DNA of 63,999 bases. Origin: a virus (lineage: Duplodnaviria > Caudoviricetes). The stretch lies in IMG/VR virus record IMGVR_UViG_3300037882_001089, positions 1-63,999 of that record. The stretch is one strand, 5' to 3'. Below the pieces are notes generated by a model. It had not been told where the DNA came from. It did not search any database and saw nothing but the letters and a program-made list of their open reading frames with translations. The position numbers were made by a program, and so were the translations under genes. Positions within the stretch are counted from its first letter, which is position 1; every line of letters begins with the position of its first letter. This document shows positions 4,244-58,839 of the stretch, piece after piece.

Positions 4244-4369
4244 ATGAAACTATCCGAAGAAGAAAGAGAGGAAATGAGAATACTTTTCAGACGAGCAAGT
4301 ATTTTTATATCAATAGCATCATTTTTTATTATTGGGGCTATTTTATACATCATTAAAACTAAGCAATAA
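4244..4369 (+). CDS. small membrane protein (41 aa)
   Basis: MKLSEEEREEMRILFRRASIFISIASFFIIGAILYIIKTKQ fills the gap between neighbouring genes. Confidence 0.5.
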   Translation: MKLSEEEREEMRILFRRASIFISIASFFIIGAILYIIKTKQ

Positions 4370-4370
4370 A

Positions 4371-4814
4371 ATGAGAACATTAGACGACTTAATTCCATTA
4401 ATTACAAATTGGGCGGAGAAAAAAGATTTATTGAAATACGAAAGTGCAGATAAACAACGTTTAAAACTTGTTGAAGAAGTTGGCGAGTTGGCGAGTGCTA
4501 TTTTAAAGAATGACATTGCCCTACAAAGGGATTCAATTGGAGATTGCTTCGTGGTATTAGTGATTTTATCCAAACAGATAGACTCCAAATTACAAGTAAA
4601 ACCAATGAAGTATCATCAAAGTATTAATCAATGTATTTATGAGATTATTCGGGTAAACTCCTACGATAGTAAAAATACTTATATTTGGGAGCTTTACGCA
4701 ATATGCACTGAACTTGAATTAGATTTAGTAGAATGTGTGAACCTTGCTTGGAATGAAATTAAAGATAGAAAAGGAGTTACAGAGAATGGTACTTTTTTAA
4801 GAGAGCAAAACTAA
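4371..4814 (+). CDS. MazG-like nucleotide pyrophosphohydrolase
   Basis: KLVEEVGELA...DSIGD and AWNEIKDRKG...GTF motifs. Confidence 0.8.
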   Translation: MRTLDDLIPLITNWAEKKDLLKYESADKQRLKLVEEVGELASAILKNDIALQRDSIGDCFVVLVILSKQIDSKLQVKPMKYHQSINQCIYEIIRVNSYDSKNTYIWELYAICTELELDLVECVNLAWNEIKDRKGVTENGTFLREQN

Positions 4815-11127: not shown

Positions 11128-12024
11128 ATGAGTCAAAAAGCGAAAAGATACAATAAAGGGAAAATACGATATGAGTTAATATCCACAATAGCATTACAAG
11201 AATTAGCAAAGGTTTATACTTTAGGAGCGCATAAATATTCTGTTTACAATGATGATTCAGGGAAAGTAGTTTTCGGTAAAGATATTCCTTTCGAGGAAGT
11301 TGGTAATTATCAATTAATAGAAGACGCTTCAAGTAATTGGAAATTAGGACTTAATTGGAAAGAAGCAATGGGTTCTGTAAAAAGACATATTGAGGCATGG
11401 GAATCGGGAGAAGATTTTGATGAATTAGGAACTTTACATTTAGGTAATGCTATGTGGGGATTAGCTACGTTAATAGATTTCTACAAAACTTACCCACAAG
11501 GAGATGACAGACCACATAACTACTTAAAAGAAGTAAAAATAGGATTAGATATTGATGAGGTTATTTGTGATTGGACAGGTGCTTGGTGTGAAAAGTTTGG
11601 CTATGATATTCCTACTAACTGGAATTTCAGTTATGACAATAAAGAGCATTTCGATAGTTTTACAGAGGACGAATTGAATGAATTTTACTTGAATATTCCA
11701 CCAAAGATTAAAGCAGAAGATTTGCCATTTGAACCTCATTGCTACATTACAAGTAGAAGTGTTCCCGAAGAACTAACTAAAAATTGGTTAATGAAACACG
11801 GATTTCCCACTACTCCTGTTTACTCTATTGGATTTGGAGTTTCTAAGGTTGAAGTTGCTTTAAAATCAGGAATAGACTTATTTGTGGACGATAGATTTGA
11901 AAACTTCGTAGAATTAAACAATAATGGTATTTGTTGTTTTCTATTCGATGCTCCACACAATCAAAGATATAATGTTGGATTTAAACGCATTAAAACTCTT
12001 AATGAACTTGTCCAAAAATACTAA
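11128..12024 (+). CDS. dATP/dGTP diphosphohydrolase (DUF5664-like) fused to a HAD 5'-nucleotidase-like domain
   Basis: RYNKGKIRYELI...GAHKY...NWKLG...KRHIEAWESGED...HLGNA, then IGLDIDEV...FVDDRFEN...APHN. Confidence 0.75.
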   Translation: MSQKAKRYNKGKIRYELISTIALQELAKVYTLGAHKYSVYNDDSGKVVFGKDIPFEEVGNYQLIEDASSNWKLGLNWKEAMGSVKRHIEAWESGEDFDELGTLHLGNAMWGLATLIDFYKTYPQGDDRPHNYLKEVKIGLDIDEVICDWTGAWCEKFGYDIPTNWNFSYDNKEHFDSFTEDELNEFYLNIPPKIKAEDLPFEPHCYITSRSVPEELTKNWLMKHGFPTTPVYSIGFGVSKVEVALKSGIDLFVDDRFENFVELNNNGICCFLFDAPHNQRYNVGFKRIKTLNELVQKY

Positions 12025-33126: not shown

Positions 33127-33156
33127 TTTGTAGTTAAATATTTATTACTATATTTG
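33127..33156 (+). promoter_or_regulatory. Bacteroidota promoter of the tRNA operon
   Basis: TTTG at 33127-33130 and TATATTTG at 33149-33156; ATG follows 4 nt later (leaderless-type start). Confidence 0.75.
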
Positions 33157-33160
33157 CTCT

Positions 33161-33232
33161 ATGAATACTAAGAAATTACATACTCTACGTCCTGAGCAAC
33201 CGAAATTATATTTGGGAGGAATTGGCGTATAA
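33161..33232 (+). CDS. attenuator leader peptide MNTKKLHTLRPEQPKLYLGGIGV
   Basis: Short ORF between promoter and terminator; codons 7-14 are CAT ACT CTA CGT CCT GAG CAA CCG. Confidence 0.75.
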   Translation: MNTKKLHTLRPEQPKLYLGGIGV

Positions 33233-33255
33233 AGTATTTTATAATATAAAAACGT

Positions 33256-33283
33256 AAACCTCTCAGAAATGGGAGGTTTTTTT
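33256..33283 (+). terminator. attenuator terminator before the tRNAs
   Basis: AAACCTCTCA-GAAA-TGGGAGGTTTTTTT; its left arm can instead pair with TTTGGGAGG at 33211-33219. Confidence 0.85.
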
Positions 33284-33287
33284 ATTT

Positions 33288-33364
33288 CTAGTTACTAGGG
33301 CAGATGGATGAACCCGCCTCACTTGGAATGAGGAGATTCGCTGATTCGATTTCAGCTAACTAGA
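33288..33364 (+). tRNA. tRNA-Pro(TGG)
   Basis: CTAGTTA/TAACTAG acceptor stem, CCTCA-CTTGGAA-TGAGG anticodon arm, GCTGA-TTCGATT-TCAGC T arm. Confidence 0.85.
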
Positions 33365-33424
33365 CGAGCAGACTGTTACTAATTCATAGGACGTGGTGTA
33401 TAATACGAACGTAGAATTAGATAT

Positions 33425-33496
33425 TAGAGTATCGTATAACGGTTATTACATCTGACTTTGACTCAGATAATGGAAGTTCGATTCTTTCTACTCTAA
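33425..33496 (+). tRNA. tRNA-Gln(TTG)
   Basis: TAGAGTA/TACTCTA, TCTGA-CTTTGAC-TCAGA, GGAAG-TTCGATT-CTTTC. Confidence 0.88.
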
Positions 33497-33498
33497 CT

Positions 33499-33573
33499 GT
33501 GTTGTTAGCATAATTGGAATAATGTGCCTAACTGTGAATTAGGAGGATAGGGTTCGAGTCCCTGCAACACCCA
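33499..33573 (+). tRNA. tRNA-His(GTG)
   Basis: GTGTTG/CAACAC, CCTAA-CTGTGAA-TTAGG, AGGG-TTCGAGT-CCCT, ends CCA. Confidence 0.85.
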
Positions 33574-33576
33574 AAT

Positions 33577-33650
33577 GCCTCGTTACGCTAAATGGAAGTG
33601 CGGTCACACTTAGAATGTGATGGTTGTAGATTCGACTTCTACACGAGGTA
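33577..33650 (+). tRNA. tRNA-Leu(TAG) with short variable loop
   Basis: GCCTCGT/ACGAGGT, TCACA-CTTAGAA-TGTGA, 5-nt variable loop, GTAGA-TTCGACT-TCTAC. Confidence 0.82.
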
Positions 33651-33656
33651 CTAAAT

Positions 33657-33728
33657 TTTCTTATAGTTTAATGGATAAAACATCAGATTACGACTCTGAT
33701 AATCTCCGTTCGAGTCGGGGTAAGAAAA
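33657..33728 (+). tRNA. tRNA-Arg(ACG)
   Basis: TTTCTTA/TAAGAAA, TCAGA-TTACGAC-TCTGA, CTCCG-TTCGAGT-CGGGG. Confidence 0.88.
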
Positions 33729-33730
33729 CT

Positions 33731-33764
33731 AAAAAAGCCTACCAAAACTAATTGGTAGGCTTTT
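33731..33764. terminator. bidirectional terminator
   Basis: AAAAAAGCCTACCAA-aacta-a-TTGGTAGGCTTTT between convergent units. Confidence 0.85.
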
Positions 33765-42916: not shown

Positions 42917-43477
42917 TTATTCTAATTTACATAAAATGTTCCTGTTTCTCATTCTGTACGAAACTTCTCCGTTTATATCGAATGGGTATTCAGAATCTTT
43001 TTTAAATGCTATTTTATCTCCTTTGAAAACATTATTTCTATTAAGAGTTTTGTTGTCATACTTTACTATTCCTACGTGCTGAACTTCGGTTTTTCCAATC
43101 CACTTCTTTTCTTCAAAGATAGGCTCTACAAAACAAAAATCATCTACTCCCAAAAACTCATTATCTTTAATAATCAAAAATACTAATTCAACTGCACATT
43201 GATACAAGTTATCTTTAATATGGAAATCACTTTTTCTTGTTAATCCTTTCCCATCAAAGTAATCTCTAAATACATTATGCTGAACTACTACTTTATCTCC
43301 TTTTTGAATAATTCCTTCATAATCTAACGGAATCTCCTCAACAACACCTACTCTATTTACATTTTCTGCATACTCAATAGAGGTATTAATTACTAAATCT
43401 TTTCCATTTACTTCTTTAGTAGTTTTGAAGTTTTCTCCACCATAAGGACTTATTACAAACTTAGTAGGGAATCTCAT
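42917..43477 (-). CDS. tandem GroES-like domain protein
   Basis: Two repeats of GVV...KGDKV/I (RVGVVEEIP...QKGDKVVV; HVGIVKY...FKGDKIAF). Confidence 0.55.
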   Translation of the reverse strand: MRFPTKFVISPYGGENFKTTKEVNGKDLVINTSIEYAENVNRVGVVEEIPLDYEGIIQKGDKVVVQHNVFRDYFDGKGLTRKSDFHIKDNLYQCAVELVFLIIKDNEFLGVDDFCFVEPIFEEKKWIGKTEVQHVGIVKYDNKTLNRNNVFKGDKIAFKKDSEYPFDINGEVSYRMRNRNILCKLE

Positions 43478-53181: not shown

Positions 53182-53242
53182 TACCTTTTTAATAAGGATA
53201 ATTTTTACATTTGTGATACAAATTAATTTAATTAAATATTTT

Positions 53243-54832
53243 ATGGATAATTCTATTATTAGGGAGATTATTTCTGATGAGTATATGAAAAATAGATTTC
53301 TTTCTGCACTTGAAAAAGCTGAGAAAGTTGTAGGAGATACAGTTGGTTTTAGGGGAGGGTTTAATGTTATTGAAAAGTTTGGTGGAATGCCTGACTTAAC
53401 AAAAGATGGTTGGTCGTGCTTAAAAGAGCTTTATTTTGATGACCCCGTTGAAGCACTTGCTTTAGAGATTGTAAAAGAAGCTACCAAGAAAACGTTTGAA
53501 AATGTAGGAGATAATACTTCATCGACTACAATATTAGTTTACTCATTTTTTAAAAACTCCTTACTTGCATTAAAAAACGGAAAGTCATCTATTGATATTC
53601 AAAGAGAGTTAGAAGAATCAGTAAACAAAATTGTTAATTATATAGATGAAATTTCAATTCCTGTTACAGATAAACTACTTTATGATGTAGCAAGAACTTC
53701 CGCTAATGACGACCATAATATTGCGAAAATAGTTTCGGAGGCTTTTGAAAAAGCTGGAGAGTTTGGTATTGTTTCCCATAAAAGAAGTATGACTGATGAA
53801 ACATTTATTGAACACGTAGAAGGTAATCCTATTGAAAGCGGATATACTCATGATTCATTTATTAATGTTCCCGAAACTCAAAGTGTTATTTTTGATAATC
53901 CATTAGTTTTGGTATCAATGATTAACTTCCAAACTGCTAACGAGATTATCCCTTTCTTGGAATACGCAAGTAAAGAAGCAAAACCACTTGTAATTATTTC
54001 AGAAATGAGCCACGATATTAAATCATTAATAGTTACCAACGTACAAAATCATAATTACCCATTCTGTATTGTTAAACCTCCATACTTAGGGAAGAAAGGT
54101 CGTGAAACAATGTTAGATTTGGCATTAATTTTAGAGTGTCAATTATTAGAGGGCATTTCTCGTGTAAACTACGAAGGAAAAGAAGAATTATACTTAGGTT
54201 CTTGTCAAAGAATGGAAGTTGGGAAAAAATATTCTACCATAATTCCTAACTCAAAAGACAACGAAAAAGTATTAGGTAAAATTGCTGAACTTAACTCACA
54301 AATCAAACATCTTAAAAAAGATTTTGAGAAAAACTACTTACGTGAAAGAATAGCCAAGTTATCAGGAGGTATTTCTACTATTATGGTAGGAGGGGTAACC
54401 CCAAGTGAAACAGAAGAAAGATTAGCTCGTGTAGATGATGCGGTTTGTGCTGTTCGTTCCGCAAAAGAAGAAGGGGTTGTTGCGGGTGGAGGAACTGCTT
54501 TAGTAAGTGCATTAGATTTGAAGTTAGACGAAATTACAAGAAAATCTATTTCCGCTCCATATTTGAAAATTCTTTCTAACGCTCACATAGACGTATCAAT
54601 TCCTTTTTGGACTCATTTAAGAGATGCTTTAAAAGGTAGAAAGAGTAAGGAGTTTTACGCAGAACAATATCCTATGGGATATAACGTTAAAACTTATGAA
54701 GTAGTAAACTTATTAGATTCAGGAATAGTAGATACCGCAAAAGGAGTAAAAAACTCTTTAATCAATGCTGTTTCCGCTTCAAATAATCTACTAAGAACAA
54801 ATAATTGTATAACCTTTAAAAGACATAACTAA
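53243..54832 (+). CDS. groL: phage chaperonin GroEL
   Basis: TKDG, RERIAKLSGGI, RVDDAVCAVRSAKEEGVVAGGG; TACATTTG promoter element at 53206-53213. Confidence 0.93.
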   Translation: MDNSIIREIISDEYMKNRFLSALEKAEKVVGDTVGFRGGFNVIEKFGGMPDLTKDGWSCLKELYFDDPVEALALEIVKEATKKTFENVGDNTSSTTILVYSFFKNSLLALKNGKSSIDIQRELEESVNKIVNYIDEISIPVTDKLLYDVARTSANDDHNIAKIVSEAFEKAGEFGIVSHKRSMTDETFIEHVEGNPIESGYTHDSFINVPETQSVIFDNPLVLVSMINFQTANEIIPFLEYASKEAKPLVIISEMSHDIKSLIVTNVQNHNYPFCIVKPPYLGKKGRETMLDLALILECQLLEGISRVNYEGKEELYLGSCQRMEVGKKYSTIIPNSKDNEKVLGKIAELNSQIKHLKKDFEKNYLRERIAKLSGGISTIMVGGVTPSETEERLARVDDAVCAVRSAKEEGVVAGGGTALVSALDLKLDEITRKSISAPYLKILSNAHIDVSIPFWTHLRDALKGRKSKEFYAEQYPMGYNVKTYEVVNLLDSGIVDTAKGVKNSLINAVSASNNLLRTNNCITFKRHN

Positions 54833-58298: not shown

Positions 58299-58645
58299 TA
58301 CTTATTTTTAACTTTTAATAAAAACTTCTCCAACTCATCTATTCTAATCTCCAAATTAGCAATCTTATAGTTGTCAAGAGTCGTACTCATTTTAACTTGG
58401 CTTTGCATCTTTAGTTTTGACTTTAACTCATTAATCCTGTCCTTAATCATTATCTCTATAACAACCAATGAAGTATTAAGCATTACGCCATTTTCGTGAA
58501 CAGTTCTATAATCATACTGAACAGATTTGATACCTCCGCATTTAGCACAAGCACCTAAACTATCTACTCCACTACCTTTACAATTACAAACATTCCACAT
58601 AATAAAACATTTTAGAGAAGGATGAAGGACTCGAACCCTCATCAT
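58298..58645 (-). CDS. hypothetical protein with CxxCxG motifs
   Basis: CNCKGSG...CAKCGG. Confidence 0.5.
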   Translation of the reverse strand: MMRVRVLHPSLKCFIMWNVCNCKGSGVDSLGACAKCGGIKSVQYDYRTVHENGVMLNTSLVVIEIMIKDRINELKSKLKMQSQVKMSTTLDNYKIANLEIRIDELEKFLLKVKNK

Positions 58646-58839
58646 AGGATAAAACTCCTATATTCTAACCAAGCGGGTTCATACGAACCTCCGAACTAAT
58701 CCCTCTGCCAATCTAACTCCCGAATCATCCCAAACCAACCAAAACTGAGTACACGAAAGAAAGACGACAATCTTAATTAATGTCCGTTATTAAACGCAAT
58801 CCTTGTCATATTGCCCGAAATAACAATCATTACCAAAAC

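Follow-up and report, generated by a model that had tools for sequence, protein, structure and literature searches.

The locus described here lies in a viral record of 63,999 bp from IMG/VR (IMGVR_UViG_3300037882_001089), and by "the window" we mean this whole stretch of DNA at its full length. The contig is estimated to be 85% complete, has a GC content of approximately 30-31% and encodes a portal protein, a large terminase, virion proteins, DnaB and an integrase. It carries five tRNA genes, all on the + strand between positions 33288 and 33729, on which ARAGORN and the Rfam model RF00005 agree (Table 1). All five exceed the RF00005 gathering score of 29 bits, and their cloverleaf folds were taken from ARAGORN. 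The lowest of the five scores belongs to tRNA-Pro, in which the junction of acceptor stem and D arm is irregular. The tRNA genes are preceded by a small open reading frame (ORF), and positions 33149-33764 appear to form one small operon, consisting of a promoter, this leader ORF, a terminator, the five tRNA genes and a second terminator.

Table 1. Features at the tRNA locus, in positions of the window
Feature	Position	Strand	Remarks
TATATTTG box (putative promoter element)	33149..33156	+	4 nt upstream of the leader start codon
Leader ORF MNTKKLHTLRPEQPKLYLGGIGV	33161..33232	+	23 codons plus stop, given in translation
Putative regulatory codon run, codons 7-14	33179..33202	+	CAT ACT CTA CGT CCT GAG CAA CCG
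Predicted antiterminator 5' strand UUUGGGAGG	33211..33219	+	leader codons 17-20; copies the terminator 3' arm
Predicted intrinsic terminator AAACCTCTC AGAA ATGGGAGGTTT plus T tract	33256..33286	+	ends 2 nt before tRNA-Pro
tRNA-Pro(UGG)	33288..33365	+	36.5 bits; loop CUUGGAA, A37; C1-G72 and A73 in the ARAGORN fold
Inter-tRNA element	33366..33424	+	occupies the place of tRNA-Glu in Panino and L307
Box 1 core TGTTACTAATTCATAG	33374-33389	+	16-mer core of the element
Box 2 CGTAGAATTAGA	33410-33421	+	just ahead of the next tRNA
tRNA-Gln(UUG)	33425..33497	+	62 bits; loop CUUUGAC, A37
tRNA-His(GUG)	33498..33572	+	48.3 bits; loop CUGUGAA, A37; C73, T at -1
tRNA-Leu(UAG)	33577..33651	+	51.4 bits; loop CUUAGAA, A37; G1.U72, A73
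tRNA-Arg(ACG)	33657..33729	+	59.4 bits; loop UUACGAC, A37
Predicted bidirectional intrinsic terminator closing the operon	33733..33764	both	13 pairs, terminator scan

A preliminary description of this DNA had pointed out that the five anticodon loops (CTTGGAA, CTTTGAC, CTGTGAA, CTTAGAA and TTACGAC) all combine G36 with A37, and the sequence bears this out. The same description had regarded the genes as a complete set for codons that begin with C (CNN codons). This is correct for CUN, CCN, CAY, CAR, CGU, CGC and CGA, i.e., for 15 of the 16 codons; the exception is CGG, which an anticodon of the form I34-C-G cannot read under standard wobble rules, and which the phage uses at 0.4 per 1000 codons. 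With respect to TrmD, which methylates G37 in G36 tRNAs, all five have the G36 of the substrate class but none has G37, the methyl acceptor. A baseline for chance is provided by the 1062 distinct tRNAs in the phage arrays that we sampled, 278 of which have G36. On this basis, the probability that five of five tRNAs have G36 is 1.2e-3 and that of one tRNA per CNN box is 3e-5, both being post hoc.

The phage can be placed by its proteins. Among 87 phage records that match its terminase, 86 are named for genera of Flavobacteriaceae (Flavobacterium 68, Cellulophaga 15, Tenacibaculum 2 and Maribacter 1), and a search with its DnaB led to Flavobacteriaceae genomes. Because of these matches, we take Flavobacteriaceae to be the host family, an assignment that, judged from protein similarity, we regard as secure.

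We therefore compared position 37 with that of the hosts. In a complete Patiriisocius genome (G005), which has 32 tRNA species, G37 is found in all seven species with G36 (Arg-ACG, Arg-UCG, Gln-UUG, His-GUG, Leu-GAG, Leu-UAG and Pro-UGG) and A37 in all of the remaining 25. For a broader survey, BLAST was run with the five cognates over 31-61 sampled Flavobacteriaceae genomes, and the best 30 matches per query were retained, giving 150 loci. In these best-match loci, G37 is present in 152 of 152 G36 tRNAs (30/30 or 31/31 for each cognate), and the loops are invariant: TTACGGC, TTTTGGT, TTGTGGT, CTTAGGA and TTTGGGA. TrmD (PF01746) was found in 21 of 21 sampled Flavobacteriaceae genomes. The contrast between phage and host on which the preliminary description depended is thus upheld, the host cognates having G37 and not A37. 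Its premise, which concerned tRNA-Pro and the CUN tRNA-Leu, is stronger than claimed, in that Gln, His and Arg-ACG are also G36-G37 in Flavobacteriaceae. The entire C row of the code in this family appears to rely on G36-G37 tRNAs, unlike in Escherichia coli. According to a passage of PMC8384417, when m1G37 (G37 methylated at N1) is lost, ribosomes stall at CCN, CGG and CUA codons and prolylation drops 3- to 10-fold.

Cultured phages of Flavobacteriaceae resemble the window phage, with A37 in 15 of 16 G36 tRNAs. The proportion is 5/5 in Maribacter phage Panino, whose five G36 tRNAs are the same as those of the window, 4/4 in each of the Cellulophaga phages Calle_3 and phi38:1, and 2/3 in Tenacibaculum phage Gundel_1. 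In the latter, Pro and Leu-UAG have A37, and the sole exception, with G37, is Gln, the most host-like of these tRNAs (79% identical to Gln of G005). A37 is not a special trait of the window phage, however, but is widespread among phage tRNAs. Outside the host family it is found in Leu-UAG of T5 and KVP40 and in Leu-CAG and Leu-GAG of CcrColossus, and it is present in 188 of 278 distinct G36 tRNAs of the sampled IMG/VR tRNA arrays, which were reached via motifs from the window and include many related loci. Five A37 tRNAs out of five are accordingly unremarkable among phage tRNAs (0.68^5, or ~0.14), and remarkable only in comparison with the host, where 0 of 152 have A37.

The case of tRNA-Pro is more restricted. 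A37 occurs in tRNA-Pro of all five Flavobacteriaceae phages checked, the window included, and tRNA-Pro(UGG) has G37 in T4, T5, KVP40, Bxz1 and CcrColossus. The apparent confinement of Pro-A37 to Flavobacteriaceae phages, among those compared, fits the type of prolyl-tRNA synthetase (ProRS) predicted for their hosts: the domain PF09180 of the archaeal/eukaryal-type enzyme was detected in 21 of 21 Flavobacteriaceae genomes. Among controls, it was present in Bacteroides, Thermus and Deinococcus and absent in E. coli, Caulobacter and Corynebacterium. In the identity table of a review (PMC9976931), G37 is listed solely for the bacterial-type ProRS, and the set given for the archaeal/eukaryal type consists of G35 and G36, without G37. 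A mention of "G37A" in the literature refers to an inserted nucleotide, G37a, and not to a change of G37 to A.

Additional observations concern position 37 in other tRNA classes. Phage tRNAs with A36 (Phe-GAA and Leu-UAA) often have G37 where hosts have A37 (61 of 251 distinct A36 tRNAs); e.g., the Phe loops of T5 (CTGAAGA) and KVP40 (TTGAAGT) are both A36-G37. Phage tRNAs with U36 have A37 in 301 of 304 cases. In hosts, position 37 of the A36 class is modified by MiaA. Because the A36 and G36 classes swap the purine while U36 tRNAs keep A37, the swap appears to affect the two classes that the host modifies at this position, via MiaA and TrmD. Some arrays (L235, L275, L441, L444 and others) have G37 and A37 versions of tRNA-Pro(UGG) side by side.

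The five phage tRNAs do not look derived from the host, since they are 55-65% identical to the G005 cognates. Their anticodon loops differ from those of the host at position 37 and, in Pro, Gln and His, also at position 32 and/or 38. Two of the five depart further from the host pattern. With 75 nt and a variable region of 4 nt, tRNA-Leu(UAG) lacks the long variable arm of class II tRNAs, as it does in Gundel_1, in Panino and in the contigs G066 and G067 introduced below; the host Leu-UAG is 83 nt long in 30/30 cases. Short Leu(UAG) genes of 73-75 nt are located at L005 3352-3426, L365 1501-1574, L347 2209-2281 and L429 9934-10008. Four phage Leu(UAG) genes that were inspected by eye have G1.U72 and A73, and the host Leu-UAG is class II with G1-C72. 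At position -1 of tRNA-His the window has T (33498), not the G-1 that is typical of bacterial tRNA-His and that hosts encode in 30/30 cases. The tRNA-His of G067 likewise has no G-1.

The region upstream of the tRNA genes has the layout of an attenuator. The TATATTTG box resembles TAnnTTTG, which we take to be the -7 promoter motif of Bacteroidetes, and the box is found at the identical 4-nt spacing ahead of the leaders of G066 and Gundel_1. A scan for sigma-70 promoters gave nothing on the + strand in the leader region. Codons 7-14 of the leader ORF specify His, Thr, Leu-CUA, Arg-CGU, Pro, Glu, Gln and Pro, so that there is at least one codon for each downstream tRNA. In random ORFs of 22 codons generated with the phage's codon usage, all five classes occur within 8 codons at a frequency of 1e-4.

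Two predicted RNA structures compete for the same sequence. The terminator stem (33256-33279) has 10 pairs in a terminator scan, which found 3 sites where 0.2 are expected. Its fold of -13.6 kcal/mol was equaled by 0 of 200 shuffled sequences and forms once the part containing UUUGGGAGG is omitted. In the predicted antiterminator, positions 33211-33219, within the ORF, pair with the terminator's 5' arm at 33259-33267 (-15 kcal/mol; 0/200 shuffles as stable). The locus thus has the attributes of a leader-peptide attenuator: putative regulatory codons clustered in a short ORF, a predicted terminator separating that ORF from the tRNA genes, and a predicted antiterminator, formed with the 3' part of the ORF, that excludes the terminator. 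Full-text literature searches yielded no description of leader-peptide attenuators for phage tRNA genes, and we consider the attenuator-like leader, as predicted here, to be the most novel element of the finding.

Homologous small leader ORFs precede tRNA-Pro, in the same layout, in L307, L279, G066 (L429), Panino and Gundel_1 (L005). Scripted folds pair the 5' arm of the terminator with the 3' end of the ORF in five of six phages (the window, L307, L279, L429 and L005); in Panino, the partner lies outside the folded segment, and the pairing was read by eye only. Four distinct terminator arm sequences occur, and each is mirrored in its own leader. Moreover, leader codons change with the tRNAs. 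The leaders of Panino and L307 additionally have Glu and UUA codons, and their operons additionally have tRNA-Glu and Leu-UAA. In Gundel_1, Asn, Gln, Leu-CUN and Pro codons abound in the leader, and the tRNAs of the operon are Pro, Gln, Met, Asn and Leu-UAG. Two further leader families, KTTTTYKTQYQPKGGKP and IFDFAFFAAEED, lie upstream of tRNAs for Pro, Gln, Tyr, Thr, Gly and Lys, and for Phe, Glu, Asp and Ala, respectively. Over 31 unique leaders, a fraction of 0.418 of codons can be read by the leader's own downstream tRNAs, compared to 0.300 +/- 0.018 after permutation of the pairings, none of 2000 permutations giving as high a fraction; as the loci were found with motifs from the window and many are related, the permutation results overstate their independence.

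Small leader ORFs with terminators form additional families, ahead of further tRNA sub-clusters in phages, at L222, L235, L248, L263, L275, L326, L329, L310, L328, L338, L365 (Panino) and others. Residues of the leaders mirror the cargo: K/T/Y/Q/P/G with Pro-Gln-Tyr-Thr-Gly-Lys, F/D/A/E with Phe-Glu-Asp-Ala, and A/T/G/I/K/D with Ala-Lys-Ile-Gly. In Gundel_1, an HNH endonuclease gene (L005 2485-2991) is located between the leader-terminator and tRNA-Pro, and looks like a homing insertion into the tRNA operon. A conserved TTTCTAG abuts tRNA-Pro in the window and is placed just after the terminator in Gundel_1.

The set of tRNAs recurs in other phages. A scan with the Pro anticodon arm retrieved contig G066 (41 kb, 84% complete), in whose full record the tRNA content is exactly Pro, Gln, His, Arg-ACG and Leu-UAG, all with A37. 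A scan with the Leu arm retrieved G067 and G068, which are one phage from two samples and encode Pro, Gln, Leu-UAG and His, all with A37, as well as a weak tRNA-Ala-like element. The tRNAs of the window, G066 and G067 are mutually 57-73% identical. Using tblastx, we detected no proteins common to the window and G066 or to the window and G067, and no gene shared by the three phages. As to the hosts of G066 and G067, one protein had no match among phage records, and others had distant matches (~30-41% identity) to phages of many hosts. G069 (complete, 94 kb) has Met, Glu and four CNN tRNAs with A37, and the single tRNA of G070 (complete, 45 kb) is Pro with A37. It is important to note that G066-G070 were found via an anticodon arm shared with the window, and are therefore a biased sample. 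Scans with 17-mers of other anticodon arms were less productive: that of Arg-ACG gave 6 contigs, none with a tRNA, which we took as chance matches, and that of His gave 2 contigs, one of them without a tRNA. In close relatives found via the capsid protein (4 IMG/VR loci, 72% identity), there is no tRNA cluster at the corresponding site, so that they did not inform on its conservation. The window has the gene order of Panino, Pro-Glu-Gln-His-Leu(UAG)-Leu(UAA)-Arg(ACG), once the two genes that do not decode CNN codons are disregarded.

A separate observation concerns L347, where a 76-nt element (2057-2132) separates tRNA-Pro from tRNA-Gln. Its features are an acceptor stem of the form GGGG...CUCCA, G3.U70, a T arm and, possibly, a loop TTTGCAA. 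In these respects it is similar to tRNA-Ala or to the tRNA-like part of transfer-messenger RNA (tmRNA), and the Rfam tmRNA model gives it 22 bits, below the gathering score of 47.

Codon supply fails to explain the five-tRNA set. CNN codons make up 103 per 1000 in the phage and 148 per 1000 in the host sample, a comparison that does not include the true host, given that the sample has 38% GC and the phage 31%. CAA is the sole CNN codon that is enriched in the phage (31.5 versus 20.1 per 1000); 14 of the other 15 are rarer than in the host sample, and CCT is used equally in both (ratio 1.02). Within the phage, CUN is used at 19.7 and UUR at 64.2 per 1000, and CGN at 8.8 and AGR at 25.8, yet no tRNA is carried for the preferred UUR and AGR.

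Because the set recurs in unrelated phages and sits behind a leader containing its own codons, it behaves as a unit. We assign a probability of roughly one half to the reading that it is an on-demand, TrmD-independent replacement, under the control of an attenuator, for the host's m1G37-dependent decoders. Given A37, methylation of N1 at position 37 would be both impossible and unneeded, and the tRNAs would decode and keep the reading frame without TrmD. They would also present an anticodon loop unlike that of the host. In Flavobacteriaceae, tRNA-Pro would tolerate A37, because the identity set of the archaeal/eukaryal-type ProRS does not contain G37.

The layout of the leader argues for regulation with trp-type logic, in which stalling at the regulatory codons frees the antiterminator. 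A ribosome that reaches the leader's stop codon would cover UUUGGGAGG, so the terminator would fold and transcription would halt 2 nt before tRNA-Pro. Should a ribosome instead stall within the run, on a His, Leu-CUA, Arg-CGU, Pro or Gln codon, UUUGGGAGG would pair with the terminator's 5' arm, and, with the antiterminator formed, RNA polymerase would continue into the tRNA genes. The phage would in this way make its own CNN decoders when the G36-(m1)G37 decoders of the host fail, and switch them off once decoding recovers. Such a failure seems more likely to stem from a defence factor that is specific for the loop and cleaves or inactivates host tRNAs of the m1G37 class, and a shortage of m1G37 during infection is a second candidate. 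These correspond to the two explanations in the preliminary description, which had the set either evade an effector that recognizes such loops or bypass loss of TrmD activity. That interpretation is partly supported, in its premise of a contrast with the host and by the behaviour of the set as a unit, whereas the two causes are candidates. A more general proposal, which we put forward only tentatively and at less than even odds, is that phage tRNA operons are run by leader-peptide attenuators that gauge the capacity to read the codons of their own tRNAs, with the operon of Flavobacteriaceae phages, which would comprise A37 versions of all m1G37-dependent decoders, being an inducible back-up for when G36-m1G37 tRNAs are disabled. 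This proposal would imply either an undescribed weapon of the host or a competitor, or a failure induced by infection, that is directed against the whole TrmD-dependent class.

In addition to the relatedness of the sampled loci and the composition of the host sample, several points weigh against an attenuator-controlled replacement set. The CNN-only content could be reached from a Panino-like operon of seven tRNAs by two gene losses, and other phage operons combine tRNAs for Pro and Gln with those for Tyr, Thr, Gly and Lys, so that CNN grouping is not universal. All five codon classes are found within 10 codons in 9 of 1408 small ORFs of the window, and only 6 of the 22 sense codons after the start of the window's leader match its tRNAs (0.27). 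A37, being the majority state of G36 tRNAs in the sampled phage arrays, may reflect what phages do in general, and not a response to a threat specific to Flavobacteriaceae. No tRNA nuclease, RNA ligase, TrmD homologue or enzyme degrading S-adenosylmethionine was seen in the window when 30 ORFs were scanned against Pfam and the six reading frames were searched for TrmD and RNA ligase, and many ORFs have no assignment. Our literature searches also found no described nuclease for m1G37-class or Flavobacteriaceae tRNAs. Finally, every functional claim made here is inferred from sequence. Despite these caveats, we consider the finding to be real and stronger than first stated, and its mechanism to be only partly resolved.

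The most serious alternative is one of modification economy, in which phage tRNAs that are made in a burst cannot await TrmD, and A37 comes under selection in any tRNA whose synthetase can accept it. The CNN decoders of the host would not be under attack; the CNN-only content would be a by-product of the loss of Glu and Leu(UAA), and the leader would balance tRNA output. Several observations made above agree with this: A37 is common in phage arrays and extends to Leu-CUN tRNAs of E. coli, Vibrio and Caulobacter phages, Pro keeps G37 exactly where a bacterial-type ProRS is expected, the A36-G37 swap in Phe and Leu-UAA points to general avoidance of modification at position 37, and the seven-tRNA operon exists in Panino and L307. 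However, economy does not account for the retention of tRNAs for the less-used CUN and CGN codons rather than for UUR and AGR, nor for the fact that the identical five-member set is the whole tRNA complement in the record of the unrelated G066. Moreover, a leader that is induced by stalling implies that host decoders are expected to run short. We consider this explanation possible but rather unlikely.

It might also be that the genes were drawn from a pool of tRNAs exchanged among phages of many hosts, in which A37 happens to prevail, and that neither A37 nor the CNN composition was selected in this phage. The Gln loop CTTTGAC is indeed identical to that of T4 and KVP40, part of tRNA-Gln is 85% identical to a tRNA-Gln of a Cronobacter phage, and the Leu-UAG anticodon arm is common to the unrelated phage G067. 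But such neutral ancestry would not lead one to expect that A37 status is uniform in 32 of 74 arrays, where 16.7 are expected and 0 of 2000 shuffles reach the observed number (relatedness inflates this difference), that the set recurs with tRNAs as divergent as those of the window, G066 and G067, or that a matched leader is present in each case examined. We therefore regard it as improbable. Least plausible by far is classical compensation for codons that the phage uses more than its host, which accounts for CAA but is contradicted by the lower CNN total relative to the host sample and by the preference for UUR and AGR without matching tRNAs.

Between tRNA-Pro and tRNA-Gln lies a conserved element that is also present at L005 3053-3111 and at loci in the range L220-L339. 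Its general form consists of box 1, (A)GACTGTTACTAATTCATAG, a variable stretch of 15-30 nt, and box 2, GCRTAGAATTAGA, directly before the next tRNA. Box 1 begins 9-12 nt past a tRNA, most often Pro (47 cases). The 16-mer core is present in at least 120 viral contigs, and a tRNA lies within 400 nt of it in 67 of the first 80 loci. The segments CTAATTC and GAATTAG can pair into a stem of 7 bp, but both are invariant, so covariation argues neither for nor against a structured RNA. Rfam gave no match for the element. A role as a genome-wide promoter was ruled out, as the window has a single copy.

Elsewhere in the contig, there are Pfam-type matches at 233-1111, 4332-4814, 11128-12024, 42917-43477 and 53213-54832. 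The domains matched at these five sites are PAPS-reductase-like, MazG-like, the N-terminal domain of a dATP/dGTP diphosphohydrolase with NT5C, and GroEL-like; the same scans gave a weak match to Cpn10 (GroES), under the Pfam cut-off. Modified bases in the DNA are a possibility at which the nucleotide hydrolases might hint. A sixth tRNA-like gene, of class II and resembling Ser(GCT)/Ser(GCU), is located at 58615-58705 on the - strand (36.5 bits) and has a non-canonical anticodon arm with the loop CCGCTTG (C33, T37). The possibility that it is a copy of a host attachment site was ruled out, because it is ~60% identical to Ser-GCU tRNAs of hosts and phages.

The locus bears on the decades-old debate as to why phages carry tRNAs, for which these findings are concrete and testable. 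At position 37, phage and host differ cleanly and across a whole class, and this difference includes natural tRNA-Pro genes with A37, even though m1G37 is, to our knowledge, regarded as universal in tRNA-Pro; in addition, phages that are unrelated share one minimal set of CNN decoders, and the leaders contain codons that correspond to their downstream tRNAs. If attenuation is true, the phage itself reports which decoders run short, and the purpose of phage tRNAs could be addressed with a reporter assay. TrmD is an antibiotic target, and m1G37 and TrmD might be a battleground between phages and Bacteroidota. Cultured phage-host pairs exist for Maribacter phage Panino, the Cellulophaga phages phi38:1 and Calle, and Tenacibaculum phage Gundel_1.

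Among known systems, ribosome-mediated attenuation is established for amino-acid operons, with the leader peptides of trp, his and pheL. The window's leader shares with these a short ORF, a run of putative regulatory codons, and a predicted terminator whose 5' arm can alternatively pair with the ORF's 3' part. It differs in that the regulated genes are phage tRNAs, and in that the regulatory codons are for several amino acids, matching the tRNAs of the operon. T4-type clusters similarly have tandem tRNA genes and the identical Gln loop, but T4 tRNA-Pro keeps G37 and the T4 set spans more than one row of the code.

Substitutions in the anticodon loops of phage tRNAs have been proposed to permit escape from host anticodon nucleases (van den Berg et al. 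2023, PMC10264068), and related work concerns T5 tRNAs in relation to PARIS and retron effectors. As with the phage tRNAs in PMC10264068, those of the window differ from their host cognates inside the anticodon loop, and codon usage does not provide an explanation. Here, in contrast, a single position, 37, is altered across the whole class of decoders for C-starting codons, which is the TrmD substrate class. The main text of PMC10264068 does not mention A37, G37 or tRNA-Pro, although its supplementary tables may list such loops. A further parallel is given in a passage of Clifton et al. 2021 (PMC8643618), where E. coli without trmD evolved tRNA-Arg(CCG) genes with A37 by anticodon mutation, which were "unaffected by m1G37 deficiency". 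In both cases, an A37 reader of a C-starting codon bypasses, or in the phage would bypass, the need for m1G37. While the E. coli case is a laboratory one and involves one tRNA, the phage set is natural, covers five codon boxes and includes tRNA-Pro.

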